This document shows positions 27,797 to 61,667 of a stretch of DNA of 64,000 nucleotides, one piece after another. Each line of letters starts with the position of its first letter. Position 1 is the stretch's first letter. The DNA comes from Candidatus Aenigmatarchaeota archaeon. GTDB taxonomy: Archaea > Aenigmatarchaeota > Aenigmatarchaeia > CG10238-14 > SCSR01. The notes below the pieces were generated by a model, which saw only the letters and a list, made by a program, of their open reading frames with translations, searched no databases and was not told where the DNA came from. Location of the stretch: positions 78,646 to 142,645 of the forward strand of contig JACPAE010000004.1 of NCBI GenBank assembly GCA_016181005.1. The letters are read 5' to 3'. A program made the translations under genes and the position numbers.

Positions 27797-28804
27797 TCAC
27801 TTCTTTTTCTTCGCAACCCAGTCAGCTACAAACGTAGGCTGCTGCCCAGCAAGATAGTTGTAAGCCTGAAGCGCGGCTTTGCATCCTTCCCCTGCAGAAA
27901 CTACAATCTGCTTGAATGGTGTTTGTGTTATATCACCTGCAGCAAAAATACCAGGTCTAACCTTGTCGCTATCAGGATAATATGTTTCTGCATTATTTGT
28001 AGCTAACACTTGTCCCATTTGATCCAGTTTAACCAAGTGCTTAATGAACTCAGTCTTGGTCACAGATCCAATCTCAACAAAAACTCCAGAAACAGGTATT
28101 TCCTTAGTTTCATTAGTCACAACATTCTGCAGGACAATTGAATGCACAGTCTGCTCACCTTTAATTTCCTTTACAATACTATTAAACAAAATTTCAATAT
28201 TCTCTCTTTTTTTGACCTCTTCAACTAAATACTCAAAACCTCTGAACTGATCTCTTCTGTGTATCAGGTAAACTTTAGGGCATATCTTACTAAGATACTC
28301 TGCACCTTCCAAAGCAGAATTGCCGCCACCAACTACAGCAACCTTCTTCCCTTTAAATAAGGGTCCGTCGCATACAGTGCAGTAAGATACACCCTTAGCT
28401 CCAAACTCACCTTCACCAGGTACATCCAATGTCCTAGGTGTTTTCCCATATGAAAGAATAACTGTTTTAGTTTTGTAAATATTTCCACTAGTCTTTACAG
28501 CAAACATCGGTTTACCATTGTTAGCATTAGGAATTTCTTCTATAACAGTCACCTCTTCATAAATAACTTCAGCCCCAGCTTTGATGGCTTGCTTTAGCAT
28601 CTTATTCATCAAAGGAATCCCGCCAACTGACATAAATCCAGGATAGTTCTCTATAACATCAGTCATCGCAGCCTGCCCACCAATGCTTTTGGCTATAACT
28701 AAAGTCTTCATCGCCCTTCTTGCAGCGTATATCGCGGCAGTCAAGGAAGCAGCCGCACCGCCGATAATGACAGAATCGTAGACAGTGTCAGTAATGTCAT
28801 CCAC
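27797..28804 (-). CDS. trxB: Thioredoxin reductase (NADPH)
   Basis: FAD motif IIGGAAASLTAAIYAAR, redox CTVCDG, NADPH GGGNSALEGA. Confidence 0.85.
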   Translation of the reverse strand: MDDITDTVYDSVIIGGAAASLTAAIYAARRAMKTLVIAKSIGGQAAMTDVIENYPGFMSVGGIPLMNKMLKQAIKAGAEVIYEEVTVIEEIPNANNGKPMFAVKTSGNIYKTKTVILSYGKTPRTLDVPGEGEFGAKGVSYCTVCDGPLFKGKKVAVVGGGNSALEGAEYLSKICPKVYLIHRRDQFRGFEYLVEEVKKRENIEILFNSIVKEIKGEQTVHSIVLQNVVTNETKEIPVSGVFVEIGSVTKTEFIKHLVKLDQMGQVLATNNAETYYPDSDKVRPGIFAAGDITQTPFKQIVVSAGEGCKAALQAYNYLAGQQPTFVADWVAKKKK

Positions 28805-28940
28805 CCTTTGCCTTCAAGATAACATCACACTGGTTGCACACGCCCGGCTTTTTGTAAAGCTTTTTGCATACGGTGCACTCGAAAACAAGCTGAGTATACG
28901 CTCCTACAAGATCATTTTCGTCATCATTTTTTCTCGGCAT
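28797..28940 (-). CDS. small zinc-ribbon protein
   Basis: CTVCKK...CNQCD pair of CxxC; internal Met start chosen to avoid overlapping the upstream glutaredoxin-like gene. Confidence 0.35.
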   Translation of the reverse strand: MPRKNDDENDLVGAYTQLVFECTVCKKLYKKPGVCNQCDVILKAKGG

Positions 28941-28941
28941 C

Positions 28942-29190
28942 TTATTTACCTGTAACGGCGGCAATTGCTTTGTCCTTTGCTGGAATTCCAGTAAACTTGA
29001 CCTTACCATCTACAATTATTGTAGGCACGGACATTATCGAATATTTTGCAACCAGTTTCTGCCCCTCTTGGGACATCGCATCTATCTCCTCATAGTCAAA
29101 TTTGTGGTTCTTCTTCAATTCTTTAAACAGCGCCTTTGAAGCCGGGCAATATATGCAGGTCTTGGTATATACCAACTGAACTTTAACCAT
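28942..29190 (-). CDS. Glutaredoxin-like protein
   Basis: MVKVQLVYTKTCIYCP ... SVPTIIVDG; CxxC plus cis-Pro thioredoxin-fold motifs. Confidence 0.6.
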   Translation of the reverse strand: MVKVQLVYTKTCIYCPASKALFKELKKNHKFDYEEIDAMSQEGQKLVAKYSIMSVPTIIVDGKVKFTGIPAKDKAIAAVTGK

Positions 29191-29245
29191 TTCAACATCC
29201 CTCTTCATAAGCAAAATATTAATTGTCTTTGGTTATTTAAACATT

Positions 29246-29461
29246 TTAACTTGTTTTCGGGAAATGAATAGCATTCTTTGTTATCTGCAGATTACAGCTT
29301 TTATGTTTAGAGCACCAATCTTGGCAGGCTTTGGCTGTAGACTCATCTTTGTAACCAAAACCGCAAATTTCGCATTTGTAAATATTCCTTCCTTTGATTG
29401 TGGTTTTTTCCACCATTATTTTGCACTTCCTTTTGATAATTTTGTACTTTGGGCTAAGCAA
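29246..29461 (-). CDS. small zinc-finger protein
   Basis: CEICGF...CQDWC Cys cluster; 71 aa (start uncertain). Confidence 0.35.
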   Translation of the reverse strand: MLSPKYKIIKRKCKIMVEKTTIKGRNIYKCEICGFGYKDESTAKACQDWCSKHKSCNLQITKNAIHFPKTS

Positions 29462-29793
29462 GCTTCGCTCCTTTCCAAAATTCTATCTATCTCATCTTTC
29501 AATTTTTCTTTTGGCATATATCCTATAGCTTCACCAATAACTTGACCTTTGCAAAACACCTTAATTGTTGGCGTACTCATAATGCCATATTTTTCTGCTA
29601 GATTGGAATTCTCATGGGATTCCAAGATATTTAGTTTAACGAATTTTGCTTTATTTTTATACTCCTTTGAAAGCGTTTCATATAACGGTGCTAATGCTTT
29701 ACACCAAACACATTGATTATGCCAAAAATCAACTACTACAGGGAGTTCTGCTGCAAGCACTTCTTTATTCCAATTTTTTCCATTCACATCCAT
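29416..29793 (-). CDS. trx: Thioredoxin
   Basis: WCVWCK active site, STPTI cis-Pro motif. Start MDVNG sits after GGAGGTGA, with the ATG overlapping the upstream stop (TAATG). Confidence 0.75.
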   Translation of the reverse strand: MDVNGKNWNKEVLAAELPVVVDFWHNQCVWCKALAPLYETLSKEYKNKAKFVKLNILESHENSNLAEKYGIMSTPTIKVFCKGQVIGEAIGYMPKEKLKDEIDRILERSEACLAQSTKLSKGSAK

Positions 29794-30113
29794 TATTTCA
29801 CCTCCTTTTCTATTACACCGCATTTAACAAGATGATCGTGATATTTTTCAACATGCCTGTTTATCGCTTCCAATATAGGCGAAACAGTAGATTTATTTAT
29901 CGAATACATCCGTTTCTTACCTAATTTTTTAGATGTTACAAACCCACAATCTATAAGGCATTTTAGATTATGCGAAACTCTACTCTGTTCAAGATCAAGC
30001 TTTCTATGTATTTCCGATACAGACAAAGACCGCTTTCTAAGAAGTTCTATTATATCCAGCCTTGTCTCTGAACCAAAAGCTTTAACAAACAACTTATATG
30101 AATTACCTTTCAT
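29793..30113 (-). CDS. ArsR/SmtB family transcriptional regulator
   Basis: ETRLDIIELLRKRSLSVSEIHRKLDLEQSRVSHNLKCL HTH; 106 aa. Confidence 0.7.
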   Translation of the reverse strand: MKGNSYKLFVKAFGSETRLDIIELLRKRSLSVSEIHRKLDLEQSRVSHNLKCLIDCGFVTSKKLGKKRMYSINKSTVSPILEAINRHVEKYHDHLVKCGVIEKEVK

Positions 30114-49265: not shown

Positions 49266-50135
49266 ATGGTAAATAAAGATATGAGAATAATTAAAAGAAG
49301 GAAAGGCCGGATTGAATATTTCTACTTGCAGCACTCGTTCAGAGACAATGGAAAAGTCATCACGAAGGAGAAATATCTGGGAAAAGACATACCCAAAAAC
49401 ATCGAAGCCGTTAAAGAGAAATTTCAGCTAGAAGCCCAAAAAAATCTTTATGGAAAATTAGAAAGAGTAAAGGAGAACTTTCAGAAAGAATGGAGGAAAT
49501 ACCCCGAGTCTGCAAAAGAAAAAGAGCTGGAAGAAATAGCTATAGCCTTTACTTATAATACAAATGCGATAGAAGGTTCAACAATAACCCTTGAAGAGGC
49601 AAGAGAAATCATACACAACAAAGTCGCTCCAAACAAATCTTTGAAGGATATAAGGGAAACAGAGTCCCACGCCAAGGTTTTCTTTGACATGCTGAACAAG
49701 AAAGAGAAGATATCCAACGGGCTTCTATTGAGATGGCATAAAGAGATATTCGGTGAAACAAAGCCCGACATTGCAGGAAAATTTCGAAACTATCTTGTTA
49801 GAGTGGGAAATTACATAGCTCCAGACTGGCAAGATGTTGTGAAGCTAATGAATGAGCTTGTTAAGTTTGCCGAAGTCAAATTGAACCCAGTTGAACTTGC
49901 TGCAAGAGCACATTACAGGTTTGAAAAAATACATCCTTTTGGCGATGGGAATGGAAGAATTGGCAGATTGATAATGAACCGTATTTTATGGCACAGCGGT
50001 TATCCTATGATAATTATAGAATACAAAAAAAGGAAGTTCTACTATAAAGCTTTGCAAAAAGGAGAAGAAGGATTTTTAAATTATTTCATAAAAAAATATA
50101 TTCGTATTCATAAAAGACATCTTTATGGTGCATAA
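49266..50135 (+). CDS. Fic/DOC family protein
   Basis: HPFGDGNGRIGR core Fic motif; 289 aa. Confidence 0.8.
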   Translation: MVNKDMRIIKRRKGRIEYFYLQHSFRDNGKVITKEKYLGKDIPKNIEAVKEKFQLEAQKNLYGKLERVKENFQKEWRKYPESAKEKELEEIAIAFTYNTNAIEGSTITLEEAREIIHNKVAPNKSLKDIRETESHAKVFFDMLNKKEKISNGLLLRWHKEIFGETKPDIAGKFRNYLVRVGNYIAPDWQDVVKLMNELVKFAEVKLNPVELAARAHYRFEKIHPFGDGNGRIGRLIMNRILWHSGYPMIIIEYKKRKFYYKALQKGEEGFLNYFIKKYIRIHKRHLYGA

Positions 50136-50167: not shown

Positions 50168-50740
50168 TTACTTCTTACGCTTCTTCCCACCCTTCTTATA
50201 CAGCTTCTTGTAGCCTATCCAGACCACTATCAAAAGCTCAGCCAGAACTATAATGACTCTTAGGAGCTTGTCGGCGTCGCTAAAGTACCTGACAGTGGCG
50301 TAGAACAAGAGAAGTATCCCGCCGAACATCAGGCCTGTGCCAAGGAATTCAATGCCCCATAAGGTGCCGGCAAAGATGGCAATTACACCGATAGCGCCTG
50401 TTATTAGGAAAACATTTCTATTGTACTCCTTCGTTGCCTGGTCGAAATCCTTGTTGCAGGTGCTGCAGCTTTCGTAAATCGGGCAGCCGGATGAATAGTT
50501 GAAAACAGGCGTGGCACCTTCATTAATGCATTGCTGGTAGTCGGAGCTGTTCTGGTATTCGTATCCGCATTTATCGACAGGTTCTGGAAAAAGTGGAAAA
50601 GGACGAGCCTTGTTAAAGATGTCCTCGCAGAAATCGTTATAGTTTGGTTGCGGATATACCAACTCTGTCAACAGAGCTATGAAAACTGCGAAGAGAATGG
50701 CTACTGCAGCAGCGACTGCTATCTGCTTGAGGTCGACCAT
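50168..50740 (-). CDS. membrane protein, Cys-rich extracytoplasmic segment
   Basis: N- and C-terminal TM helices flank a Cys-containing loop (CEDIF..CGYEY..CINE..CPIYESCSTC). Confidence 0.4.
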   Translation of the reverse strand: MVDLKQIAVAAAVAILFAVFIALLTELVYPQPNYNDFCEDIFNKARPFPLFPEPVDKCGYEYQNSSDYQQCINEGATPVFNYSSGCPIYESCSTCNKDFDQATKEYNRNVFLITGAIGVIAIFAGTLWGIEFLGTGLMFGGILLLFYATVRYFSDADKLLRVIIVLAELLIVVWIGYKKLYKKGGKKRKK

Positions 50741-50824
50741 TAGAATAATTTGTTAGGAAGGATTAAAAGGATTTGGGTCTAGTAAACTCAAATTAACATT
50801 CTAAAAAGCAAATAACTAATTGGT

Positions 50825-51034
50825 TCACGTTCTTAGAGCATGTTTAACATCATCGCAAACACTATTAGGGACATTTGTGAAATGAGGCCTATAACCTTGA
50901 TAATGCGTAAGCCTTCTTAGAAGCCTACTTCCACTTAAAGGACCTTCACTATGGGTGCCAACTCTATAATAATATTCCATCGAACCTTTTTCCCTCGACC
51001 CTCTGATATAAACTATCTTTTCTGCAGTTTCCAT
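50825..51034 (-). CDS. hypothetical protein
   Basis: 69-aa ORF. Confidence 0.25.
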   Translation of the reverse strand: METAEKIVYIRGSREKGSMEYYYRVGTHSEGPLSGSRLLRRLTHYQGYRPHFTNVPNSVCDDVKHALRT

Positions 51035-51065
51035 ATCTAAAAATAGCTCAAAAAAGTATTTAAAT

Positions 51066-51350
51066 TTACTTGTTGACTTCCCTGTTCAGCTCCGCAGAAA
51101 TATAATGCCCACTCATGTTCAATTTGACCGACTTTACTCCAGGAATCTGCAGTACAACGCCCTTGATGTCATAAGCCATCTTTAATGCCAGCATAGGGGG
51201 GCAGTAGGGCGCTGTTAGATGAAAATCGATAGAAACTTCCCCGTCTTTAATCTCTACCTTGTCCACAAGCTCCATTTCAGTTATTGGTACACCTAACTCT
51301 GGATCCATTACTTTCTCCAACTCCTTCATGATAGTTTTTTTGTCTAGCAT
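51066..51350 (-). CDS. DUF59/MIP18-like Fe-S cluster assembly protein
   Basis: VMDPELGVPITEMELV ... LTAPYCPP motifs. Confidence 0.65.
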   Translation of the reverse strand: MLDKKTIMKELEKVMDPELGVPITEMELVDKVEIKDGEVSIDFHLTAPYCPPMLALKMAYDIKGVVLQIPGVKSVKLNMSGHYISAELNREVNK

Positions 51351-51370
51351 CAGAAGTACCTCTTTTTATT

Positions 51371-51577
51371 TTACTCTAGCTTCCGTTCAAATTCTTCTCT
51401 AGAAAAATGTCTTCCTTTCTCAATCTTTTTTATTTTTCTGATGTAATCTGGTCTGACTTCGTAGATTTCAACATCAAGCGAAGTTAGGTTTTTTAACTGA
51501 GACTTCACTTCTTGCAAATCACTTCTGAGCAGGCCTATTTCTTTGGTGATCTGTTTAAATCTATCTCCAGCACTCAT
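51371..51577 (-). CDS. hypothetical protein
   Basis: 68-aa ORF, coiled-coil-like. Confidence 0.25.
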   Translation of the reverse strand: MSAGDRFKQITKEIGLLRSDLQEVKSQLKNLTSLDVEIYEVRPDYIRKIKKIEKGRHFSREEFERKLE

Positions 51578-51710
51578 TTTATCACTAAAATCATTTAGTT
51601 GTTTTTGAACTTAAGTTGCACATTTGCTAGGATAATATAACCCTTACCACTACATCACAATTTTCTTAAGCACGACTTCTTATTTATACAGTCGGGACAA
51701 AATATTTATA

Positions 51711-51893
51711 ATGGCGAAAGTCCTGTCCTGGAAGGAGACAAAGCTCGAGAAATGCTATGAATGCGGCAAAGTTCTTCATCCGAAAAAGCAGGTCCATCTG
51801 CACAAGAGGCTGTTCTGTTGCGCAAAGTGTGCGGAGCACTACAAGAAGCACAAGGGAAAGAAAAAGAAAGCCGAGGTATGCGAGTTTTGTTGA
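51711..51893 (+). CDS. small zinc-binding protein
   Basis: CYECGK...CCAKCAEH...CEFC; 60 aa. Confidence 0.35.
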   Translation: MAKVLSWKETKLEKCYECGKVLHPKKQVHLHKRLFCCAKCAEHYKKHKGKKKKAEVCEFC

Positions 51894-52588
51894 GAGCCAT
51901 GAAAGCTGCAATGATTTTGCTAGTTCTTCTGCTGTTGCCAGCAGCTGTCCTTGGGCACGAAGAAGTAGCTCATGAAGAATCAAACGACAGGATAGCCGAA
52001 GAAATAGTACATTTCTTGAACGTGCCGAAATACTGGCTTCTGGCGCCAATTGCCATAATCTCAGCATGCATCGCGGCGATAATATACGGGGAGACGCTGA
52101 GCGAAAACAAGCGAATAATAATTTTTTCTGTCATAGCAATATCGACTGTTTCGGCGACCGCATTTCTCGTTGGACAGACAATCTACATGAGCATGACGTC
52201 ATGGAGCAATGGGATAGTGCATTGGCATGCCGATTTTGAGCTTTGGATTTGCGGCGAGAAGCAAACATTGCCAGATCCTGCAGGGCTTGCAAACAGGGTG
52301 GGAACACAAGACGTGCACCATCACGGCGATTACAGGATTCACATAGAAGGCGTGATTGTTGACATGGAAGAGGCAACCTTGGGGCACTTTTTCGACGTTA
52401 TAGAAGTGCCGTTCAGCAACAGCCAGTTAATGGAAAAGAAGAACGGAGACTTTTGCCCGGACGGAAATCCGGGAATTGTCAGGATGTACGTTAACGGCAA
52501 GGACTATATCGGGGATTATCGAGACTATGTGATAGCGCCTTATTCAAATGTGCCGCCAGGGGATTTCATAAAAATAGTTTTCGGTTGA
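51878..52588 (+). CDS. secreted/membrane-anchored protein with His-rich domain (paralog 1 of 3)
   Basis: Signal-peptide-like N-terminus, then HWHADFELWICGEK...HHHGDYRIHIEG...YVIAPYSNVPPGDFIKIVFG; paralogous to 57748-58263 and 60993-61667. Confidence 0.5.
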   Translation: MRVLLRAMKAAMILLVLLLLPAAVLGHEEVAHEESNDRIAEEIVHFLNVPKYWLLAPIAIISACIAAIIYGETLSENKRIIIFSVIAISTVSATAFLVGQTIYMSMTSWSNGIVHWHADFELWICGEKQTLPDPAGLANRVGTQDVHHHGDYRIHIEGVIVDMEEATLGHFFDVIEVPFSNSQLMEKKNGDFCPDGNPGIVRMYVNGKDYIGDYRDYVIAPYSNVPPGDFIKIVFG

Positions 52589-52592
52589 TTTT

Positions 52593-53303
52593 ATGGCAGT
52601 TGAGACAGCATTACCGACACTGGGAATCGTGGTGACAACGGCTATTGTGGACTCTATCAATCCATGCGCCATAGGTGTCTTAATCGTCCTATTATCAGCT
52701 TTGCTGGTGCTCAGGGAAAGCAAGAAGAGGATGATTATTTTCGGCATTACTTACATAGCAGCAGTGTTCGTAGCCTACCTGCTTGCCGGGCTCGGCCTGA
52801 TATTCTTCCTACAGAGGATACCTCTTGCAATTGCCGAATACATATCAATAGCGGTCGCGTCCCTGCTGATGGTCGCTGGCCTGCTGGAGATAAAGGACTT
52901 TTTCTGGTACGGCCGGTGGTTTTCGCTCAGCATTTCCGGCGCCAATGCAAAAAGAATCGAGAGGTACGCGAAAAGAATTTCCCTCCCCAGCCTGATTTTC
53001 CTTGGATTTTTCGTGGCTGCAGTCGAGCTTCCGTGCACAGGCGGGCCCTATCTTGCAATCACGCTCCTGCTTTCCCAAAGCTTCAATGCCACGGCGTTCG
53101 CAATGCTAGTGTTATACAACATAATCTTCATTATTCCTCTAGTTGCAATTCTTGCGGTAGTAATGCTGGGCGCAAGGGTTGATGTTGTCAAAAAGTGGAA
53201 GCAAAGGACCAAGGCTTACATGCGGCTTGCAACAGGTCTGATATTAATCGTCCTTAGCTGGCTTTTGATACTGATTGCCAATGGCACGATAAACTTTGGA
53301 TAA
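52593..53303 (+). CDS. ccdA: Cytochrome c biogenesis protein CcdA/DsbD-like membrane thiol-disulfide transporter
   Basis: Conserved NPCA and LPCTGGP Cys motifs in TM helices. Confidence 0.7.
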   Translation: MAVETALPTLGIVVTTAIVDSINPCAIGVLIVLLSALLVLRESKKRMIIFGITYIAAVFVAYLLAGLGLIFFLQRIPLAIAEYISIAVASLLMVAGLLEIKDFFWYGRWFSLSISGANAKRIERYAKRISLPSLIFLGFFVAAVELPCTGGPYLAITLLLSQSFNATAFAMLVLYNIIFIIPLVAILAVVMLGARVDVVKKWKQRTKAYMRLATGLILIVLSWLLILIANGTINFG

Positions 53304-53320
53304 CCCTGCAAGAAAGTTGT

Positions 53321-53830
53321 CTACCTTTTTCTTTTCTGCCTTGTCAGGTACAAGACAAGTGTGATTATGAAAAGAACCCAGCCGAGAGCACCGACCAAAA
53401 ACAAAGTATTGTAATCGGCAAAATAACCCGGGTAGTAGTTTCCCATCATCCTCATCATCATAGGCATCATATTCACATTCATCATTCCAGATACAGTTCC
53501 GCACCCTAGCCAGTTCTTGCCCATAATAATGTGCATCTGTTTCAAGCTTTCAGACCCTTCGCCGCCCATCATTGCGTCCATCTGCTCATGAAGCTCATGG
53601 TCGCCAGCCATCTTCTCCATCACGGAATCACCAAGCCCTTCAAGTTCTTGGCCGGATACGTTATTGCAGCTCAGCTCTCCCACAGTGCTGACGCCCTGTT
53701 CCGCCATCATGCTTGCCATAATGTCGTTAACGTCGGCAGAGCTAGACGTCATGTGTGCATAAGAAAATGGTGCGATAACGCTGACTGCAAATATAAACAA
53801 AACTATCGTTTGCAGTTTCATATTTGACAA
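53321..53830 (-). CDS. Met-rich secreted/membrane protein (putative Cu(I)-binding)
   Basis: Signal peptide, then Met-rich stretches (MMNVNMMPMMMRMMGNYYPG) and a C-terminal TM; adjacent to copA. Confidence 0.5.
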   Translation of the reverse strand: MSNMKLQTIVLFIFAVSVIAPFSYAHMTSSSADVNDIMASMMAEQGVSTVGELSCNNVSGQELEGLGDSVMEKMAGDHELHEQMDAMMGGEGSESLKQMHIIMGKNWLGCGTVSGMMNVNMMPMMMRMMGNYYPGYFADYNTLFLVGALGWVLFIITLVLYLTRQKRKR

Positions 53831-53851
53831 TTCAAACTCATAGCTTAAATA

Positions 53852-55918
53852 CTATTTTATCCTAGGTTTATAGCCCCTCATCAACAGAGAATTCCCGACA
53901 ACAGAAAATGAGCTGAACGCCATCGCAGCCCCCGCGATGATGGGCGACAGCAGCAAGCCGAAGAAAGGATATAACAACCCGGCGGCTATCGGTATTCCGA
54001 CTGTGTTGTATGCAAATGCCCAAAATAAGTTCTGCTTTATCTTCCGAACAGTATACCTGCTCAAATCTATGGACGTAATTACATCTCTTATATCACTTTT
54101 GATAAGAACAATCTTTCCTGTCTCAAGTGCAACATCTGTACCGGAACCTATTGCAATTCCTAGATGCGCCTGAGCCAGCATGGGCGCGTCATTAATGCCG
54201 TCCCCTACGGTTGCAACTACTTTTTTCTTCCTCTGGAGTTCTTTCACTTTCTCCGCCTTCTCTTCCGGCAAAACTTGAGCCATAACGTTTTCGATTCCAA
54301 GTTGTTTGGCAATAGTTTTAGCAGTTCTTTCGTTATCCCCCGTAATCATCCAAACTTCTATTCCCATTCTCTTCAGCTGTTCAATTGCTTCTTTGGAAAA
54401 TTCCTTCAAAGTATCAGCGACCGCAATTAAACCAATGGCCTCCCCACCATATGCAACTGCAACTGCAGTTTTGCCCTCGTTTTCTAATTTCTGAAGTTCA
54501 GACTCAAACTTTGTCACGTCAACCTTGTTTTCTTTCAAGAAAGTTCTGGTTCCCACAAGAATTTGTTTTTTCAGGTATGTTGCCTTAATTCCTTTACCTG
54601 AAACCGCTTCGTATTTTTCCGCGCTTGGTATCCTAGTCTTCATTTCCCTAGCCTTTTGTACAATCGCCTGCCCTATTGGATGTTCAGAGCCAGCTTCAGC
54701 GACAGACGCCAGCCTGAGAACCTCGTCTTCCTTAACATTAGACAAACGAACTATATCCGTGACAACTGGCTGACCTTTTGTCAACGTCCCAGTTTTATCA
54801 AGAACAATGGTATCAATTTTGTGTGCAACCTCTAAAGCTTCTCCGCCCTTTATTAAAATTCCATTCTTGGCTCCCAAGCCTGTGCCAACTAAAATTGCTG
54901 TTGGTGTCGCAATTCCCAAGGCGCATGGACATGCAATTATCAGAACTGTGATGAAGATTGTTAAAGCAAAAATGAAACTTTGCCCCAGAATATACCATAA
55001 AATACCGGATAATATCGCAACGGCGATGACGCTAGGCGTGAAAATAGCCGAGACTTTATCAGCCAGCCTCTGGATAGGCGCCCTTCCTGTCTGAGCTTCT
55101 TGCACAACCTTGATTATCTGTTGCAATACAGTGTCGCTACCTATTTTTGTGGCCTTGAATTTGACCAGTCCCGTCTTGTTGATAGTAGAGCCTATGACTT
55201 CGTCGCCGACCCTTTTTGTAACAGGCAATGACTCTCCCGTAATCATGCTCTCATCAACAGACGATTCTCCTTCAACAACCACACCGTCAACAGGAAACTT
55301 TTCACCCGGCCTAACAGCGATTATGTCACCAATCTGAAGCTCCTCTATAGGAATCTCGACCTCTCTCTTGTTCTTGATAACCATTGCAGTTTTAGGCTGC
55401 AGTCCCATCAGCGCCTTGATGGATTCGGAAGCCTTGGCTTTTGCAGATTCCTCCAAGAACTTTCCCAACAATATTAGAGCTATTATGATCACAGAAGCGT
55501 CAAAATAAGTCTCGCCAATAAATGTTTCTGGAAAGAATGTTACAAGAGTGCTGTATAGCCAGGCCGCAGAAGTGCCTGTTGCAATCAGCGTGTCCATGTT
55601 GGCGATTCTGGCTCTCAAACCGTCCCATGCGCCTTTGTAGAATCTCCAGCCTGCATAGAACTGGACTGGCGTAGCCAGAAGTAACAAAATCAAATTGTTG
55701 TTCGGCAGCTTGTAAAAGAAAGAAAGGACAACGACCGGTATAGCTATCAAGCCGCTGAATATGGCAAGGAACCGCAGTTTCTTAAGCTCGACCTCAGGAG
55801 ATTCATAAGTTTTCAGGCAGACTTCGCTGCAAAAGTAGATTGTTTTGCCGTCGACTTGCTTCTTGTAGACTGCATTCTTCTCATCCACGTGCATGCCACA
55901 GACAGTGTCTATCGCCAT
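53852..55918 (-). CDS. copA: Copper-translocating P1B-type ATPase with N-terminal TRASH/YHS domain
   Basis: N-terminal [10 protein letters not shown]...YYFCSEVC, TM CPC (IACPCALG), [15 protein letters not shown]. Confidence 0.9.
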
Positions 55919-55933
55919 AATTAATTATAAATT

Positions 55934-56071
55934 TTATTTAACAAATTTATTAGGATCTATCATGAATTCAGCTTGACAATTGCTACTGCAGAAATAATAG
56001 GTTTTGCCTTTATGTTGAGCTTTAATTTTACCTTCATTAATTTCCATTTTGCAAATAGGGTCCATGGCCAT
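55934..56071 (-). CDS. TRASH/YHS-domain small metallochaperone
   Basis: MAMDPICKMEI...YYFCSSNC; Met start chosen within the longer ORF. Confidence 0.6.
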   Translation of the reverse strand: MAMDPICKMEINEGKIKAQHKGKTYYFCSSNCQAEFMIDPNKFVK

Positions 56072-56094
56072 AACAATCCATTGAAGTTTAAAGT

Positions 56095-56937
56095 TCATTT
56101 TGGGAAAAGCAAGATCACAAATTCCTTTACGAATATTGACGAAAGAAACAAATAAAGACCAACTAAAATCAAAATTACTGCACTCCATTTCCTTATCTTT
56201 GGTGTAATATTAGTCAACTTTTCTATAGTTTCCCTCTTTACTAAACCAACAAGGAAAGATAATACTATCATTAGAAAAGCCATTGTTAGTGAAAAAACAA
56301 TGAAAGCGGTTAATGCAGATATAAAACCACCTGTACTGAAAGCAAATAGTATTAGCCCAGCAAGTATAGGACCTACACATCCAATTCCAATTATATTATA
56401 AGCAAAACCATAGGTGAATGCTTTAGCTGATGAATTCTGTCGAATAATCAGTCTATTGCTATACTCAGCTATTCTGTGAAAGAATCCTAATCCAGTGAAA
56501 TATTGTGAGAATCCAAATAAGATTAAAACAGAACCTACAACTCCTCTGAAGATTCTAACATACAAGTTTGGCTGGTCTGTTGATAATGCAAACGATTTAG
56601 CAAAGTTTTCGCCTAAAATTCCGATCAAACTCCCGAAGATAATGTTAAAAACAATTATACCTAACGCTGTTAGTACACCATAATAAACTATTTTGGATAT
56701 ACCCTTTCTTCTTGCACCATAAAAGCTAGTTAAATAAGCCGGTAATACAGGAAATGAACAGGGATTAAAAAATGTAGCAATTCCAGCAACAATAGCTAAA
56801 AATAACAAGCTGTATACCTCAAAAGTTTTGGTAACAGTAATAACAAAATATCTGAATGTTAAATAACCAAATAAAATAACAAAAGCTAGCAAAATTAAAC
56901 TTATCAGTAAACTAAAATTTTGAGTTCTATTTTTCAT
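56095..56937 (-). CDS. CcdA/DsbD-family membrane thiol-disulfide transporter (second copy)
   Basis: NPCSFPVLPAYL motif; multiple TM segments. Confidence 0.6.
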   Translation of the reverse strand: MKNRTQNFSLLISLILLAFVILFGYLTFRYFVITVTKTFEVYSLLFLAIVAGIATFFNPCSFPVLPAYLTSFYGARRKGISKIVYYGVLTALGIIVFNIIFGSLIGILGENFAKSFALSTDQPNLYVRIFRGVVGSVLILFGFSQYFTGLGFFHRIAEYSNRLIIRQNSSAKAFTYGFAYNIIGIGCVGPILAGLILFAFSTGGFISALTAFIVFSLTMAFLMIVLSFLVGLVKRETIEKLTNITPKIRKWSAVILILVGLYLFLSSIFVKEFVILLFPK

Positions 56938-57371
56938 CTTATCACAATTCGGATTTTATTTAATAACAAACCATAAGACAACAAAATTGTTGCAAAAGAA
57001 ATTGCTATTACTCCTAAAGAATTTATAACATACATTCCCAAATAAAAGAGACTTCCGCCTATTATCATTAACAAAAAAGAAAGTTTATTTCTATAAGCAC
57101 CAATTGCTGCTAAAATTATTGATAATATCAAAATTATTGGACCATAAGGAGGAGTACCTAGTGTTATCCAAAAGTTTAACAAGTATCCTAAAGGTGAATT
57201 ATCAACAACTCCTAAAGTTTGACTCGACGCCATAATACCTGTATGAGAAAGTGTTTGTGATCCTATAAGAATTGTTATCGGAAGGAGAGGAACTATAACC
57301 ATACCCGAGCAACTTACAAACCCTACTCCACCTAATGCACTAAAATATTTTCTTAGATTTTTTACCATCAT
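56934..57371 (-). CDS. membrane protein
   Basis: Four hydrophobic helices; overlaps the next gene by 4 nt. Confidence 0.4.
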   Translation of the reverse strand: MMVKNLRKYFSALGGVGFVSCSGMVIVPLLPITILIGSQTLSHTGIMASSQTLGVVDNSPLGYLLNFWITLGTPPYGPIILILSIILAAIGAYRNKLSFLLMIIGGSLFYLGMYVINSLGVIAISFATILLSYGLLLNKIRIVIR

Positions 57372-57413
57372 TTTACTCGCAACCGAATTAATTTTACATA
57401 TCCCCAGTTTTCA

Positions 57414-57710
57414 TTATCTACCACACAAATATTTACAGTATTTGTTAGTGTGTTTATCGATTAATTTCAATAGAGGCAATATAGTTTCTTTGTTTAGGGA
57501 ATAGATACTGTGTTTACCTTTTCTAGTATTATGGACAAATCTACATGTTGTTAGGCGTTTCAGACTTTTAGAAATAGTTGTCTGATCATAACCTAGTTCA
57601 TTAGTTAGTTGCGTAACATTCTTAGGTTTCTTCATTAAGGCATGCAGTATTTCTAGTCTAATTTCGTTGCTCAATGTACCAAAGAATAGTGCATATGGCA
57701 TTTTAGTCAT
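57414..57710 (-). CDS. ArsR/SmtB family metalloregulator
   Basis: NEIRLEILHALMKKPKNVTQLTNELGYDQTTISKSLKRL HTH; C-terminal Cys pair. Confidence 0.7.
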   Translation of the reverse strand: MTKMPYALFFGTLSNEIRLEILHALMKKPKNVTQLTNELGYDQTTISKSLKRLTTCRFVHNTRKGKHSIYSLNKETILPLLKLIDKHTNKYCKYLCGR

Positions 57711-57747
57711 ATGATATATTTGCCATATTTAGTATTTAAGTTTAACT

Positions 57748-58263
57748 TCATTCGAAGATTATCACTATTTCATCCCCATCTCTAATAACATATTTTTCAA
57801 AGTCGTTATTTAATTTGTTATTTACAAACATTTTCACGCTTCCTTCAGGACCATTGCAAAATTCGAAAATACAGTTCTTGTTAAAAGTCTTTCCCCAAAC
57901 TTGGAAGAAATTACCCAGATACATATCCTGTGATGTTGGTGCATGCATCATAACTTCCCAATGTAGCGTGCCAGTAGCATCGTGAGTATGCATATTCGTC
58001 ATGTCCATCATACTGTCATAAAAGGGGCTGCTTGCATATTCGCTACCTATCCCTATATTGGCGGGTATAGCAACTTTCTCACCTTTTATTATTATTTCAA
58101 GATTAGGATGCCAGTGTATAGGTTTATTGGGTAAAACAACATTGTCGGTTATTTTTGAAAAAGAAAACAAAGAGTATAGGCCCATCAATAAGCCAATAGA
58201 ACCCAAAACAACGACAAAAATTACTATTATGTTTTCATTTCTTTTCATACTATCTCGTTGCAT
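57748..58263 (-). CDS. secreted protein with His-rich domain (paralog 2 of 3)
   Basis: TM/signal, then IHWHPNLEIIIKGEKVAIP...NMHTHDATGTLHWEV...YVIRDGDEIVIIFE. Confidence 0.5.
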   Translation of the reverse strand: MQRDSMKRNENIIVIFVVVLGSIGLLMGLYSLFSFSKITDNVVLPNKPIHWHPNLEIIIKGEKVAIPANIGIGSEYASSPFYDSMMDMTNMHTHDATGTLHWEVMMHAPTSQDMYLGNFFQVWGKTFNKNCIFEFCNGPEGSVKMFVNNKLNNDFEKYVIRDGDEIVIIFE

Positions 58264-59053
58264 TGACTACCTTATTCTGATCGAGATCCTTATAAGTTCC
58301 CATCAGTTCCGTGCTCCTGAAAACATACCAGCCGTCATCCTCGACAGTTCCGACATCATTCCAAATGCCAACTAAAGACGGATATACGGAAGCATCAGGG
58401 GAAAGAATTATCGTAGGCACTTTTGTTATGCTGTACTTTTGCAGCAGTTCTTTCCCTGCAGTCGACGATACATCATAAGTCAGAGACTTGTCTACATAAA
58501 TGCCGAAGTTTGGAAGTACCTGCATATGGTTCTCCACATCATAGCACTCCAGACAAGAGTTATCCGTGAGCCTTATCACTTCAACGAGGCCGACAACACG
58601 CTCTGTGTCCAGCCTGTAATATGGCGGGATGTGGTCGATAACAACAACATTGTCAACAGCCTCCACACCAATCCTCGCCCACAAATGGGCAATATTTGCC
58701 TGTGAAACCTCTCCGGTGATGACTAGAGCCGGGAGACTTGCTATACCGTTCTTCGCAATTATGTCCTGCGCTTCATCGCCCTTATAATCCAAATTCTTTT
58801 CCTGGACAACATTAACATTCTGGTCCTTGATGAACTCAGCAACTCGCGACATGTCATAACAGTTTTCGCAATCGGCAGCCGTTATCAAGGCGAAATGCAA
58901 GTTTGCAGGCCTCTCCTGCTGGAGCTTCGACCTGATCGGCTCAAGCGCACTATTTGTAAGGAAAATGTTTATGCCATAAATAATAACCAAGGCTATTGCA
59001 AGCCCTACGAATGCATTGCGCACCAGTTCATTGTGCCTCTTGCGTTTTCTCAA
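58250..59053 (-). CDS. membrane-anchored protein with two thioredoxin-like repeats
   Basis: N-terminal TM, then two repeats each with CxxC (CENC, CLEC) and cis-Pro-like motifs (LPALVITGE, VPTIILSPD). Confidence 0.5.
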   Translation of the reverse strand: MRKRKRHNELVRNAFVGLAIALVIIYGINIFLTNSALEPIRSKLQQERPANLHFALITAADCENCYDMSRVAEFIKDQNVNVVQEKNLDYKGDEAQDIIAKNGIASLPALVITGEVSQANIAHLWARIGVEAVDNVVVIDHIPPYYRLDTERVVGLVEVIRLTDNSCLECYDVENHMQVLPNFGIYVDKSLTYDVSSTAGKELLQKYSITKVPTIILSPDASVYPSLVGIWNDVGTVEDDGWYVFRSTELMGTYKDLDQNKVVNATR

Positions 59054-59089
59054 CTAGACAACTCCTTTAAAAATGAAGAAAAGGAAAGC

Positions 59090-59278
59090 TTACCCGCAAC
59101 CGCCAACTTGCGAAGCCTGCGACAACTGGGAAAGCACGCCAGACTGAGAACTTACGGCAGCCGTTCCTACCACACCGCTGGATATGGCCTGGGTCAATGT
59201 AACAAGCTGTATCGCCTGCACACCTGCCATTAGCACCAATATTCCCATCAGCGCAAGCAGCACCATGTTCGTGTTCAT
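59090..59278 (-). CDS. small secreted low-complexity peptide ending in GGCG
   Basis: Signal/TM MVLLALMGILVLMAGVQA, then a Ser/Gln/Val-rich tail with a C-terminal Cys. Confidence 0.3.
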   Translation of the reverse strand: MNTNMVLLALMGILVLMAGVQAIQLVTLTQAISSGVVGTAAVSSQSGVLSQLSQASQVGGCG

Positions 59279-59299
59279 CTAACAACCTCCTTAATTAAT

Positions 59300-59575
59300 T
59301 TAATCATTATCTAATAAATGCCCTTTGCAGCCATGCTCTATGCTGCATTGCACCAATTCCCCGAACTTTGGAACGCCTTCAAACATCTTCCTGCCGTTTC
59401 CAACTATTGTCGGAATTGTTCTGACATTGTATTTTTTTGCCTCTTTCATGCCCTGGCTTTTGGCAAGATCGTATATCCGCAGAGAGCATTTCGCGCCCAT
59501 AACTTTTCTTACCATGTCCTCTGTTTTTGTGCAAAGATGGCAACCGCTTACGAATAACTCAATATCCATTGGCAT
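59300..59575 (-). CDS. thioredoxin/glutaredoxin-like protein
   Basis: CHLC CxxC and TIPTIV cis-Pro motif; 91 aa. Confidence 0.55.
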   Translation of the reverse strand: MPMDIELFVSGCHLCTKTEDMVRKVMGAKCSLRIYDLAKSQGMKEAKKYNVRTIPTIVGNGRKMFEGVPKFGELVQCSIEHGCKGHLLDND

Positions 59576-59579
59576 TTAC

Positions 59580-60974
59580 TCACAACCCCAGGCCCTGCAG
59601 ATACTGCTTAACGGCATAAGAGCCTGATAAGGATGAATATTGCTTTCCGGCAACCAGTTCTCTATCCACATCGTTCCAATCTTTGTTTTCCGCCAATTTA
59701 AAGTACAGTGCGTCCTGTATGTATGTTGCGGGGAACCAGTATGAGTTGAACTTGACGAATGCATCAAACATCTCCTCCTCACTGTAGCCTTGATGAGCCA
59801 TGAGCTCAACCAATCCAAGTGCAGAGAACCCGTGCGAGCAGTCTGGCGCAGACGTAGGATTGCCGCAGCACGGCCTGTACGAGTTCTTCGCGACCTTCTC
59901 GGCTTTAGCCTGCTGTTCAGGCGTCAGCTCAATGAGACTTGTGTCGCCGTAGCCTGCCTTGCCTACGCCTATATCATAATCGCCAAAATACTGCGCAAAC
60001 GGGCTGTCGTGCAGAATCTGGTTGTCGTTGTGCTTGCCCAGCGTCCAGAGTACGTACATCATAAAGACGCCATTGTCTGAATTGATCGTAAGCTTTTCGT
60101 CCGAATAGTCCGATGTCAGCAATGTTTTTTGTTCAGTTGTCAGGGGCTTGCCATACCTTTTCGTCATTATATCGTCCAGCTTGTCCACGTCAAGAACGCC
60201 CGCCTTGACCATCTTGCTCACAGAATCTCCCCATTTAGCGTCTATTGTGAAACCTTTCTCCGGCAGAACCTCCAGGGCAACCGAGTCTACATCAACCTTT
60301 CCATCTGTGCTTGTAGCAGAGCCCGTTGTGCTGACTGCGTTCCCTGTGACGATTGGCATTAACTGATAGCCGAAAATCAGCAAGGCCGCGACAGTAATGC
60401 CGATGAAGGCGTATGTCTGCAAAGGAGTTAGTTCATCGCTGAAAGAATGCCTGGATCTCTTTAAAGCAGCTTCTGTTGTGGTGCATGCTATGCAAATGTT
60501 GTCGTATGAAAATCTTACCGTAAGCAAAACTCCAACGGCCAGCAGGGCAAGTCCGGCAATCTGTATCCAAATCAGGTATGGTATAACTGAGACAAGCGGA
60601 ATGGTTATGAAACTGCCAAGGACAAGAAAGTTCACGCCAAGGCACACCGGGCACACTGCAGCGAACGCTCCTGCGGCCATTCCCAAGAACGACGTGCCTC
60701 TTGAAATAGCCTTGTTCTGAATGGAGTATCTAGTCAGCGTGACAATCAGCGAGGCCATTAAAGACGCTGCTGCAATGTAGAAATAATCAAACAGCCCTGG
60801 TTTCACATCCTTGAAAAATCCCAGCTCGATAATAGGGATTACAAAAATCCCATAGAAGAAAGAGTACAGCAACAAAAATCCAACTAGGGCAGCGAGAAAA
60901 AACTTTAGGTTCTTTTTTGCGACCACGGTTAAAGTGTTTGAAAAGACTTGTTTAATAGAAGATTTTTTCCTCAT
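59580..60974 (-). CDS. polytopic membrane protein with intramembrane CxxC pairs and Cys-rich extracytoplasmic C-terminal domain
   Basis: CPVCLG and CIAC within hydrophobic segments; C-terminal YRPCCGNPTSAPDCSHGF; 464 aa. Confidence 0.45.
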   Translation of the reverse strand: MRKKSSIKQVFSNTLTVVAKKNLKFFLAALVGFLLLYSFFYGIFVIPIIELGFFKDVKPGLFDYFYIAAASLMASLIVTLTRYSIQNKAISRGTSFLGMAAGAFAAVCPVCLGVNFLVLGSFITIPLVSVIPYLIWIQIAGLALLAVGVLLTVRFSYDNICIACTTTEAALKRSRHSFSDELTPLQTYAFIGITVAALLIFGYQLMPIVTGNAVSTTGSATSTDGKVDVDSVALEVLPEKGFTIDAKWGDSVSKMVKAGVLDVDKLDDIMTKRYGKPLTTEQKTLLTSDYSDEKLTINSDNGVFMMYVLWTLGKHNDNQILHDSPFAQYFGDYDIGVGKAGYGDTSLIELTPEQQAKAEKVAKNSYRPCCGNPTSAPDCSHGFSALGLVELMAHQGYSEEEMFDAFVKFNSYWFPATYIQDALYFKLAENKDWNDVDRELVAGKQYSSLSGSYAVKQYLQGLGL

Positions 60975-60992
60975 AATACCATTATTCTGTCG

Positions 60993-61667
60993 TTACCTAT
61001 TTAATACCATTGTCCTTCCGGAGTTGTCCTTGGAAAAGTCTGTGACATTGTTTTGCTGCAATGCAATCTCCTCGTCAGTTTCATCGCCGTAAGTAATAAG
61101 AATCTTGTCCAAGTCCTTGAAGACATACTTTTCATATTCAGAGTTCTGTTCCCACGCGCCGTCAGCATGCTTGATGTACATCTTCAAAGTCGCGGAGCCA
61201 GAGTTGCAGTATTTTTTGGCGCCAGTGACTTCGAAGCATTCCAAATTAAACCTCATCCCCAAGCTGTCGAAGAACATCTTTAGCGGTACTCCTGTGGAGT
61301 GTATGTGTGTGACAGTGCCTGCTCCAGGACCTTCTTCTATATGCACGTAAGAACTCCTGACATAGAATTGCGGGGGCAGAGGCGTTATTTCTTCACCGTT
61401 CAAGTGTATTCCAATGTCCGCATGGATGTGAGTTGAGCCTACGGGTCCTATATTCGGGGAATTCGATAACGACCAGTAAATTCCGTATCCGACAGCGCCC
61501 ACAACAAGCAAAGGTATCAGGATTAGCAGAATCTTGCCCTTAGTTATTTTGCTTTTCCTCTGATGATGGTGGACAGGCTGCTCCTTATGCGCGTCATTCC
61601 TATGCTGGCTAAGGGCTTCGTTGGTTTTGAATTTCCTGCCGCATACGTCGCACGAAACCTTTTCCAT
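60993..61667 (-). CDS. C2H2 zinc finger-TM-His-rich domain protein (paralog 3 of 3)
   Basis: N-terminal CDVCGRKFKTNEALSQHRNDAH, His-rich linker, TM, then THIHADIGIHLNGEEI...VTHIHSTG domain. Confidence 0.5.
   Translation of the reverse strand: MEKVSCDVCGRKFKTNEALSQHRNDAHKEQPVHHHQRKSKITKGKILLILIPLLVVGAVGYGIYWSLSNSPNIGPVGSTHIHADIGIHLNGEEITPLPPQFYVRSSYVHIEEGPGAGTVTHIHSTGVPLKMFFDSLGMRFNLECFEVTGAKKYCNSGSATLKMYIKHADGAWEQNSEYEKYVFKDLDKILITYGDETDEEIALQQNNVTDFSKDNSGRTMVLNR

Follow-up and report, generated by a model that had tools for sequence, protein, structure and literature searches.

The DNA stretch considered here, a window of 64 kb taken from contig JACPAE010000004.1 of a Candidatus Aenigmatarchaeota archaeon, carries a gene cluster for copper handling and extracytoplasmic thiol-disulfide chemistry in which three proteins share the same His-rich domain. 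In the present work, we describe these three paralogs, the large family to which they belong and the genes that accompany them in related genomes. We then discuss the role that the domain may play at the outer face of the membrane, together with the alternative roles that its sequence, its predicted fold and its gene context might also accommodate.

Three paralogs in a copper and thiol-disulfide gene cluster

The three paralogs (Table 1) can be aligned over ~125 residues with 21 invariant columns, and pairwise BLASTP comparisons among them give E-values of 2e-11, 1e-8 and 1e-3. A family profile built from 267 members was searched against every stop-to-stop open reading frame (ORF) of the 64 kb in six frames. 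It matches exactly these three ORFs and no others, with E-values of 2.5e-69 for paralog 2, 1.9e-32 for paralog 3 and 1e-25 for paralog 1. The first-pass annotation of this DNA, made from the sequence alone, had reported that the three proteins share one domain; alignment, BLASTP and family profile agree on this point, and the multiple alignment that it had put forward as a check does bring the three paralogs together. The motifs that it had listed (HxH, GE, P, HxH/H and the C-terminal D-x-I-x-I) are found among the 21 invariant columns, and the domain that it had called unrecognised is indeed without a sequence match in Pfam, NCBIfam or the PDB.

Paralog 2 is the canonical family member. Its N-terminal transmembrane (TM) helix (aa 7-33) is followed by the domain (aa ~45-171), which carries the conserved residues H50, H52, H92, T93, H94, H101 and E103, the Cys131/Cys136 pair and a Met-rich insert, YDSMMDMTNM. 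In paralog 1, a signal-like segment and two further hydrophobic helices come before the His-rich domain, predicted to adopt a beta-grasp fold (see below), and the ligand set is retained as HWH...HHH...HIE. Paralog 3 carries its ligands in swapped form, HIH ... HIE ... HIH. An additional ORF of 60 aa (51711-51893, plus strand) ends 16 nt within the start of paralog 1 in a different frame; its Cys residues follow a TRASH-like pattern (CxxC...FCCAKC) and its tail is rich in Lys, and with no Pfam match it is a candidate gene.

Paralogs 2 and 3 lie, together with the ArsR, YHS and CopA genes, in a run of 12 minus-strand genes that begins at 61667 and ends at 53321, no gap exceeding 42 nt; these genes make up one operon-like array, of which the Met-rich gene is the final member. 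Paralog 1 forms a separate plus-strand pair with a CcdA-like gene that begins 4 nt past it. The latter encodes a membrane protein with two 'PC' motifs that passes the SfLAP model only; it is homologous to the CcdA/SfLAP-type neighbours encountered in related loci, whose cluster representative also matches DsbD_TM. The CopA protein is a P1B-1 copper ATPase according to its CPC motif, its TIGR01511 score (646.9 bits for a cutoff of 397) and its N-terminal YHS domain. The stand-alone YHS protein probably starts at Met40 (position 56071), which would give it 45 aa; a YHS gene of that same length occupies the same position in the sister genome discussed below (L081). The 62-aa ORF of the array has one TM helix and a Ser/Gln-rich tail and, judging from its similarity to the ORF found at the same place in L081, probably represents a genuine small gene within the operon. 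The Pfam and NCBIfam searches bear out the neighbours named in the first-pass annotation (CopA, YHS/TRASH, two proteins of CcdA/DsbD type, ArsR and thioredoxins), and the Met-rich protein and the polytopic protein with CxxC pairs that it had noticed are present at the cluster as well. The polytopic protein, of 464 aa, is hereafter called mem464.

Table 1. Genes of the copper and thiol-disulfide cluster, with positions in the 64-kb window
Feature	Position	Strand	Remarks
Paralog 1	51878..52588	+	236 aa from 51878; ORF can open at 51761
DsbD/CcdA-superfamily membrane protein 1	52593..53303	+	Pfam SfLAP PF11139, 37.9 bits (cutoff 35)
Met-rich protein, secreted or membrane-anchored (MMNVNMMPMMMRMM)	53321..53830	-	Homologs in 5-8 of 80 related loci
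CopA-type Cu(I) P1B-ATPase, N-terminal YHS/TRASH domain, CPC motif	53852..55918	-	Pfam E1-E2_ATPase 5e-59, YHS 2.6e-7
Stand-alone YHS/TRASH metallochaperone	55934..56188	-	Pfam YHS 9.7e-11
CcdA/DsbD-type membrane thiol-disulfide transporter 2 (CcdA2)	56095..56937	-	Pfam DsbD_TM 9e-9, above gathering score
145-aa polytopic membrane protein	56934..57371	-	No family assignment
ArsR/SmtB metalloregulator	57414..57710	-	Pfam HTH_5 1.3e-11; NF033788 64.6 bits (cutoff 55)
Paralog 2	57748..58263	-	171 aa; canonical family member; 100% identical to HYT70_04700
Membrane-anchored double-thioredoxin-fold protein, CxxC in each domain	58250..59053	-	Pfam Thioredoxin_3 (aa 60-116), Thioredoxin_2 (aa 162-222)
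Conserved 62-aa membrane peptide ending ...SQVGGCG	59090..59278	-	77% identical to same-position L081 ORF, E 4e-25
91-aa thioredoxin/glutaredoxin-like protein (CHLC)	59300..59575	-	Pfam Thioredoxin_3 7.4e-11
mem464, 464-aa polytopic Cys-rich protein	59580..60974	-	Second unnamed family; no Pfam or NCBIfam match
Paralog 3	60993..61667	-	224 aa; C2H2 zinc finger (predicted cytoplasmic), TM helix, His-rich domain, conserved acidic tail

Family size and distribution

An exhaustive HMMER search assigns 4,408 clusters at 50% identity to the family (E <= 1e-3), of which 2,762 remain at E <= 1e-10; there are 132 close homologs, and a second profile yields 694 sequences at E <= 1e-5. The named sources are nearly all bacteria of the candidate phyla radiation (CPR/Patescibacteria) and DPANN archaea. 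Almost all homologs are labelled 'hypothetical protein', the sole exception being a JGI entry named ThiS, and one family member matches the Pfam model ThiS. Pfam and NCBIfam give no family for the domain, neither in the three paralogs (E <= 0.1) nor in 144 representatives (E <= 1e-3). Sequence and profile searches of the PDB return no significant match; the best one, 4wwm (E 0.086), falls on the C-terminal strand region, where the VNG...DGDxIxI segment aligns weakly. No description of the His-rich family or of its operon was found in the literature searched. Relative to these libraries and to this literature, the family, its arrangement of ligands on a beta-grasp and its companion mem464 are new; small extracytoplasmic copper proteins encoded in cop operons are, as a functional kind, already known.

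Conserved residues and putative metal ligands

Conservation was counted in an alignment of 267 sequences, numbered after paralog 2 (Met = 1), which are otherwise 25-45% identical. Five His and one Glu, arranged as HxH, HTH and HxE, make up the putative ligand cluster: H50 is found in 266 sequences, H52 in 264, H92 in all 267, H94 in 264, H101 in 266 and E103 in 265, exceptions being few and keeping ligand-capable residues. P67 (264), G71 (266), T93 (259) and W123 (264) are conserved to a comparable extent. H94 and E103 trade places in paralog 3 and also in its ortholog from another genome (73% identity), giving HxE...HxH where the family has HxH...HxE. The ligand set thus stays the same, two of its members having changed places across the two strands of one hairpin, as a shared metal site would predict. 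The position located 4-5 residues before HTH alternates between Met (98 sequences), His (80) and Tyr (49), and a Met-rich insert (YDSMMxMTN) stands beside HTHD in ~46-50 sequences, paralog 2 included.

The domain contains neither a CxxC motif nor a conserved Cys ligand. Cys131 and Cys136 occur together in 182 of the sequences and are missing together from the other 85, a lone Cys never being observed; such a strict covariation is in line with a disulfide bond, as might form in a domain that is exported. At least 12 of 144 representatives (e.g. P0016, P0121 and P0177), as well as paralog 3, carry a C2H2 zinc finger and a basic stretch before the TM helix. A cytoplasmic finger of this kind is unusual for prokaryotes and could, from its sequence, take part in signalling or in cytoplasmic metal binding.

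Predicted fold

The AlphaFold2 model (61-sequence alignment; pLDDT 93.5, pTM 0.79) consists of basic residues, a confident TM helix (residues 7-33) and a mixed alpha/beta domain. The elements of the latter follow each other in the order strand-strand-(hairpin)-helix-strand-strand: strand 1 (LxIxIxG), strand 2, an inserted hairpin (HTHD...HxE), a helix (LxxFFxVWG), strand 3 (VxMxVNG) and a last strand (DGDxIxIxYE). An additional N-terminal strand bears the HxH motif. The beta-grasp is defined by a mixed sheet around one helix placed between strands 2 and 3, the C-terminal strand pairing with strand 1, and the domain as modelled is an elaborated member of this fold. A Foldseek search of the PDB gives no match at E <= 1e-3, and the resemblance is therefore at the level of the fold only. 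The top hits are the beta-domains of haptocorrin, transcobalamin and intrinsic factor (4kki, E 8.5e-3, probability 0.99; 5np4, TM-score 0.56 on the target); staphylococcal superantigen C-domains and Urm1/ThiS come among the others, nearly all of them beta-grasp proteins. We know of no other beta-grasp family that bears such a His cluster.

The fold that had been suggested from the sequence alone, a cupredoxin-like or other beta-sandwich, is replaced by the beta-grasp that structure prediction and Foldseek give. Cupredoxins are Greek-key beta-sandwiches with a His...Cys...His...Met copper site; the domain has no cupredoxin match in Pfam and none among the top 50 of Foldseek, and it has no conserved Cys ligand. 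The ThiS/MoaD/Urm1 sulfur carriers, to which the single JGI label refers, have the same fold. These carriers are cytoplasmic proteins whose C-terminal Gly-Gly is adenylated or thiocarboxylated, whereas the present family has no C-terminal GG (it ends with ...I-x-I-x-[YF]-E) and is predicted to be anchored by its TM helix outside the cell. In the SLBB superfamily, which also shares the fold, the transcobalamin clade is characterized by a beta-hairpin inserted behind the helix and by a pair of conserved glycines (PMC1796856). The hairpin precedes the helix in the family described here; G71, located after strand 2 (266 of 267 sequences), could correspond to one of the two glycines, and no Pfam match to SLBB or DUF4430 is found in the paralogs. 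A thioredoxin-fold partner of CcdA of the ResA, CcmG or TlpA type can be set aside on the basis of the beta-grasp fold, the lack of CxxC and the absence of the CxxxxC pair from 85 of the 267 sequences. Similarly, CopC/PcoC, CusF, PCuAC, YcnI and CopL/DUF1541 appear neither in the Pfam and NCBIfam results nor in the PDB profile search nor in the Foldseek top 50.

Gene neighbourhoods and domain fusions

A scan of one genome per GTDB species identified 164 relatives; 80 loci were fetched, their ORFs called, clustered and annotated, and neighbours were counted within 6 kb of the 83 family genes that they contain. The commonest partner is mem464, whole or split, which is encoded in 44 of the 80 loci. 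It is followed by a DsbA-like protein (29 loci; Thioredoxin_4/DSBA, with CPFC in 22 of the 29), a copper-type P-ATPase (24 loci; 10 with CPC, 10 with CPH and 4 with CPD), a CcdA/SfLAP-type protein (19-24), an unnamed 141-aa membrane protein, or mem141 (14), a multicopper oxidase or MCO (13), the CsoR regulator (12) and a Met-rich protein (8). At least one copper or thiol-disulfide gene is present in 63 loci, and we estimate at ~1-2% the chance that a single-copy gene lies within 6 kb of a random gene in a genome of ~1 Mb. Immediate neighbours of the 83 family genes are parts of mem464 in 33 cases, another family copy in 10, an MCO in 8, an ATPase in 7, a DsbA-like gene in 4 and a CcdA gene in 2. 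MerA-like genes occur in five CPR loci.

In bacteria, the usual order is mem141>DsbA-like>mem464N>(mem464C)>FAM>(MCO), where FAM is the family gene and mem464N and mem464C are the two parts of a split mem464; CsoR and ATPase genes are often on the same strand, and median intergenic gaps range from -8 to +8 nt. Minimal operons read CsoR>ATPase>FAM (L074) and CsoR>.>ATPase>FAM>MCO (L065). The archaeal order FAM>mem464>...>double-Trx>FAM, where double-Trx is the double-thioredoxin-fold protein, is that of the window; it is found in L001 and, in partial form or with extra ORFs, in L002, L042, L053 and L064. Homologs of the double-thioredoxin protein lie directly upstream of a family gene in L001, L002 and L042, and one to two ORFs upstream in L053 and L064.

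Two features of these neighbours deserve mention on their own. The unnamed membrane protein of ~141 aa (CPF...MCQMP..DH) comes first in the bacterial operon, just before the DsbA-like gene (L004, L008, L013, L021, L023, L037, L045, L056, L057, L068, L071, L073, L079 and L080). Four CPR copper-type ATPases (L017, L023, L048 and L065) have CPD in the transmembrane metal site, where the others have CPC or CPH. All four also possess an HMBD domain at the N-terminus and a stretch rich in Met; we know of no described P1B subgroup with the CPD motif.

Fusions were surveyed among the best 150 representatives. Some of these proteins continue at their C-terminus into a cupredoxin with a type-1 (C...H...M) or CuA-like (CxxxCxxxHxxM) site, which constitutes a separate domain. 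Others are fused to the HMBD heavy-metal domain or to a TlpA-like Redoxin (WCPTC), and giant surface fusion proteins combine the family domain with cyclophilin and Calx-beta domains.

The partner protein mem464

The N-terminal part of mem464 comprises ~5 TM helices, with CPVC within a helix and CIAC after TM4, and its C-terminal domain of ~235 aa carries the invariant motif RPCC...DCxHG. The Cys motifs are external, intramembrane and cytoplasm-side, the last of these in the archaeal form. All 118 homologs are labelled hypothetical. The AlphaFold2 model has a pLDDT of 81, exceeding 90 in the C-domain, and neither a Pfam or NCBIfam model nor a PDB fold match by Foldseek was obtained. In CPR bacteria, mem464 is usually split into a membrane gene of ~178 aa (mem464N), which lacks the second CxxC, and a secreted Cys-rich gene of ~200 aa (mem464C). 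Pfam returns nothing for these two parts, nor for the 141-aa membrane protein that leads the bacterial operon. The frequent co-occurrence of the His-rich family with mem464 and the DsbA-like protein points to a new conserved envelope module.

Synteny and a probable cassette exchange

In another Aenigmarchaeota genome (L081), the locus is flanked by the same NUDIX and thymidylate-kinase genes as in the window. The genes follow the order paralog 3-like, mem464, 60-aa peptide, double-thioredoxin protein, paralog 2-like, ArsR, MerA, YHS and CopA. The MerA gene (TIGR02053, 567 bits; L081:10830-12248) takes the slot that the 145-aa membrane gene and CcdA2 occupy in the window, and the family genes are kept in both genomes. 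The GC content of window positions 55800-58000 is 0.29-0.33, versus 0.43-0.49 in the flanking DNA; this low-GC segment spans the start of the YHS gene, CcdA2, the 145-aa gene, the ArsR gene and the 3' part of paralog 2. These observations suggest a cassette exchange between MerA on the one hand and the 145-aa gene with CcdA2 on the other. Taken together, the synteny with L081 and the low-GC slot indicate that the core array is chromosomal and conserved and that one cassette was exchanged. The region had initially been described as an island, a term that holds as far as a copper and extracytoplasmic thiol-disulfide cluster is meant; recent transfer would apply to a part of it only, the core array being syntenic in the relative.

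Proposed function and alternatives

Paralogy, conservation, predicted fold, operon context and domain fusions are established by the tools used above. We propose, by analogy with known copper systems, that the family consists of extracytoplasmic copper-binding and hand-off proteins that are tethered to the membrane and face outwards, a proposal to which we would give an even chance. The outside orientation, the binding of a metal, copper as this metal and the direction of the hand-off are what we infer here. Orientation is suggested by the basic residues before the TM helix, by the covariation of Cys131 and Cys136 and by the secreted partners in the operon. A single-pass anchor would present the domain of ~125 residues to the cell exterior, where the N-terminal HxH strand and the hairpin HTH(D)...HxE would set five His and a Glu on strands next to each other, creating one or two sites for a metal. 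On the outer side of the membrane, the protein would pick up copper, either Cu leaving through a CopA/CopB exporter or Cu(II) made by an MCO. Bound copper would then be buffered, or passed to the MCO or to the Cys-rich mem464, and the DsbA-like, thioredoxin and CcdA proteins would guard exposed thiols against copper damage or repair them. From the sequences, a metal-binding role appears to be the best reading and copper the most likely metal.

Several points weigh against this proposal. The 80 loci were retrieved with one peptide pattern derived from 17 closer sequences and are biased to close relatives, and no gene of either kind, copper or thiol-disulfide, occurs within 6 kb in 17 of them. 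The clustering of the six ligands would follow from strand positions in the model only. The tightest partner, mem464, has no assigned role, so the module could serve another purpose. The presence of MerA at the locus of the sister genome implies that this locus may answer to thiophilic metals in general. Finally, sites made of His and Glu only would also suit Zn, Ni or Fe. This last point, along with the 17 loci just mentioned, would agree with a role for the domain in binding one of these other metals or with a non-metal function of its His residues such as pH sensing, a structural function at the surface or zinc-finger signalling. The proximity of copper genes would then reflect the clustering of envelope-stress genes in tiny genomes. 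The N-terminal C2H2 fingers, which could signal, and the giant fusions with cyclophilin and Calx-beta domains could be understood in the same way. However, the CsoR-headed operons, the CPC/CPH ATPases, the adjacent MCO genes, the cupredoxin and HMBD fusions, the Met-rich insert and the Met/His alternation before HTH all favour copper, and we consider such another-metal or non-metal role unlikely.

The importance of mem464 in the neighbourhoods calls to mind importers in which a binding protein serves a transporter, as MerP feeds MerT and CopC feeds CopD. The domain might similarly be a receptor that delivers a soft metal, Cu(I) or Hg(II), inward through the CC...C-H site of mem464 and its membrane CxxC. 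Parts of mem464 are indeed the immediate neighbour 33 times among 83 genes, their Cys motifs can be followed from the external to the cytoplasmic side in the archaeal form, and MerA or MerA-like genes are found in the syntenic locus of the sister genome and in the five CPR loci. On the other hand, His and Glu ligands are poorly suited to Hg(II), the split bacterial mem464N is without the second CxxC and the family is also found without mem464. Since mem464 has no detectable fold relative, its function as a transporter is a guess, and we regard a receptor role as improbable. In a redox role, copper bound by His and Glu would be catalytic or act as a relay, conveying electrons from the thiols of the DsbA-like protein and mem464 to a cupredoxin or MCO and finally to O2. 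To our knowledge, CPR bacteria and DPANN archaea do not have respiratory quinones, hence lack the usual DsbB/VKOR electron sink. The operon uniting DsbA-like, mem464, His-rich and MCO genes might then be a copper-based, quinone-independent pathway for DsbA re-oxidation that forms surface disulfides in both groups. This is suggested by the conserved and translationally coupled gene order running from mem141 to the MCO, the CPFC active site of most DsbA-like proteins, the membrane-embedded CxxC of mem464 and the fusions to Redoxin and to electron-carrying type-1 or CuA-like cupredoxins. About 20% of bacterial species have been reported to lack DsbB, VKOR and MauE, i.e. any known DsbA oxidase (10.64898/2026.03.05.709764, 2026 preprint), and there is therefore a gap that a redox role could fill. 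Many family genes are nevertheless accompanied by CsoR and a Cu-ATPase only, with no DsbA or mem464 gene nearby (L046, L065 and L074), the MCO is limited to 13 of the 80 loci, many of the hosts are anaerobes and no similarity to known oxidases was found. We thus hold both the electron relay and the re-oxidation pathway built upon it to be quite doubtful.

The first-pass annotation had viewed the domain as a metal-binding or redox partner of the CcdA systems. The metal part of this view persists as the best reading, and a partnership dedicated to CcdA has become very unlikely. Four nt separate the end of paralog 1 from a CcdA-like gene, paralog 2 lies three genes away from CcdA2, and CcdA/SfLAP-type genes occur in 19-24 of the 80 loci, directly adjoining the family gene in L016 and L066 and separated from it by a DsbA-like gene in L043. 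Yet the survey of genome context, which had been recommended for CcdA and CopA, finds CcdA as immediate neighbour in only 2 of 83 cases, compared with 7 of 83 for the Cu-ATPase, itself present in 24 loci. Moreover, the domain has no CxxC, its Cys pair is missing from a third of the members and the sister genome has MerA in the slot of CcdA2 with the family genes kept. Copper binding and hand-off outside the cell remains the role against which known systems are compared below.

Comparison with known systems

The job proposed here would be similar to that of CopC/PcoC, CopL, CusF or CutF and would be carried out on an unrelated fold. CopC possesses a His-rich Cu(II) site, to which some forms add a Met-rich Cu(I) loop. 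In the CopC/PcoC-CopD systems (cop/pco; YobA-YebZ in E. coli, with the AZY operon described in PMC8689200), a small extracytoplasmic copper binder is likewise associated with an MCO and a polytopic membrane partner. The family also displays a His cluster and, in a subset, a Met-rich insert, and it adjoins MCO and mem464 genes. Unlike CopC, it has no Pfam match to CopC or CopD, is predicted to be a beta-grasp instead of a beta-sandwich, carries a TM anchor and has a ligand set of five His and a Glu without the N-terminal amine.

In Staphylococcus aureus, which has one membrane, a Cu-ATPase is co-encoded with a tethered surface copper protein (copXL/copBL) or with an MCO (copB-mco) (PMC5947656, PMC6191537). 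The same logic is apparent in the CPR orders ATPase>FAM>MCO and CsoR>ATPase>FAM. CopL binds copper, whereas copper binding is predicted for the family. The two are unrelated in sequence, the family giving no match to DUF1541, and CopL is attached as a lipoprotein where the family uses a TM helix. In Rhodobacter capsulatus, the small gene cutF located just upstream of the MCO gene cutO is needed for copper-dependent maturation, downstream of export by CopA (PMC8456105). Family genes directly followed by an MCO gene (FAM>MCO; 7-8 instances, median gap -8 nt) are reminiscent of this arrangement; unlike CutF, to which it shows no sequence relationship, the family is far more often found without an MCO. 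Copper tolerance that depends on Scs and DsbD/CcdA groups a DsbD-family membrane reductase with thioredoxin-fold proteins. In a similar way, CopA is accompanied in the window by two genes of CcdA/DsbD type and by two proteins that hold three thioredoxin-fold domains between them; Scs, compared by Pfam domains only, is without a His-rich beta-grasp component or a mem464-like protein.

Few protein families are known to handle copper outside the cytoplasm, and all of these have been characterised in cultivated bacteria. The present family, with at least 4,400 clusters at 50% identity and no name, Pfam model or solved structure, appears to fill this role across CPR and DPANN, two radiations that account for much of microbial diversity and on which hardly any experiments have been done. 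If the module were to form disulfides or to relay metals, it would bear on the question of how organisms without DsbB, VKOR and MauE oxidise DsbA. Even in a conservative view, thousands of 'hypothetical proteins' can be annotated with a usable label, and biochemists are offered a small and confidently modelled domain.

Other features of the window

At the left edge of the cluster, a minus-strand gene (50168-50740) encodes a membrane protein of 190 aa whose external loop is rich in Cys. This protein has no homolog in the 80 related loci and for this reason probably lies outside the module; its gene adjoins a Fic-domain gene (49266-50135, plus strand). A separate cytoplasmic thioredoxin locus is located at 27797-30113 on the minus strand. 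It encodes a thioredoxin reductase, a 70-aa Cys-rich ORF, a 90-aa thioredoxin-like protein, a 71-aa zinc-ribbon-like protein, a thioredoxin (WCVWC) and a second ArsR regulator. The 71-aa zinc-ribbon-like protein is weakly similar to part of some members of the mem464 cluster.

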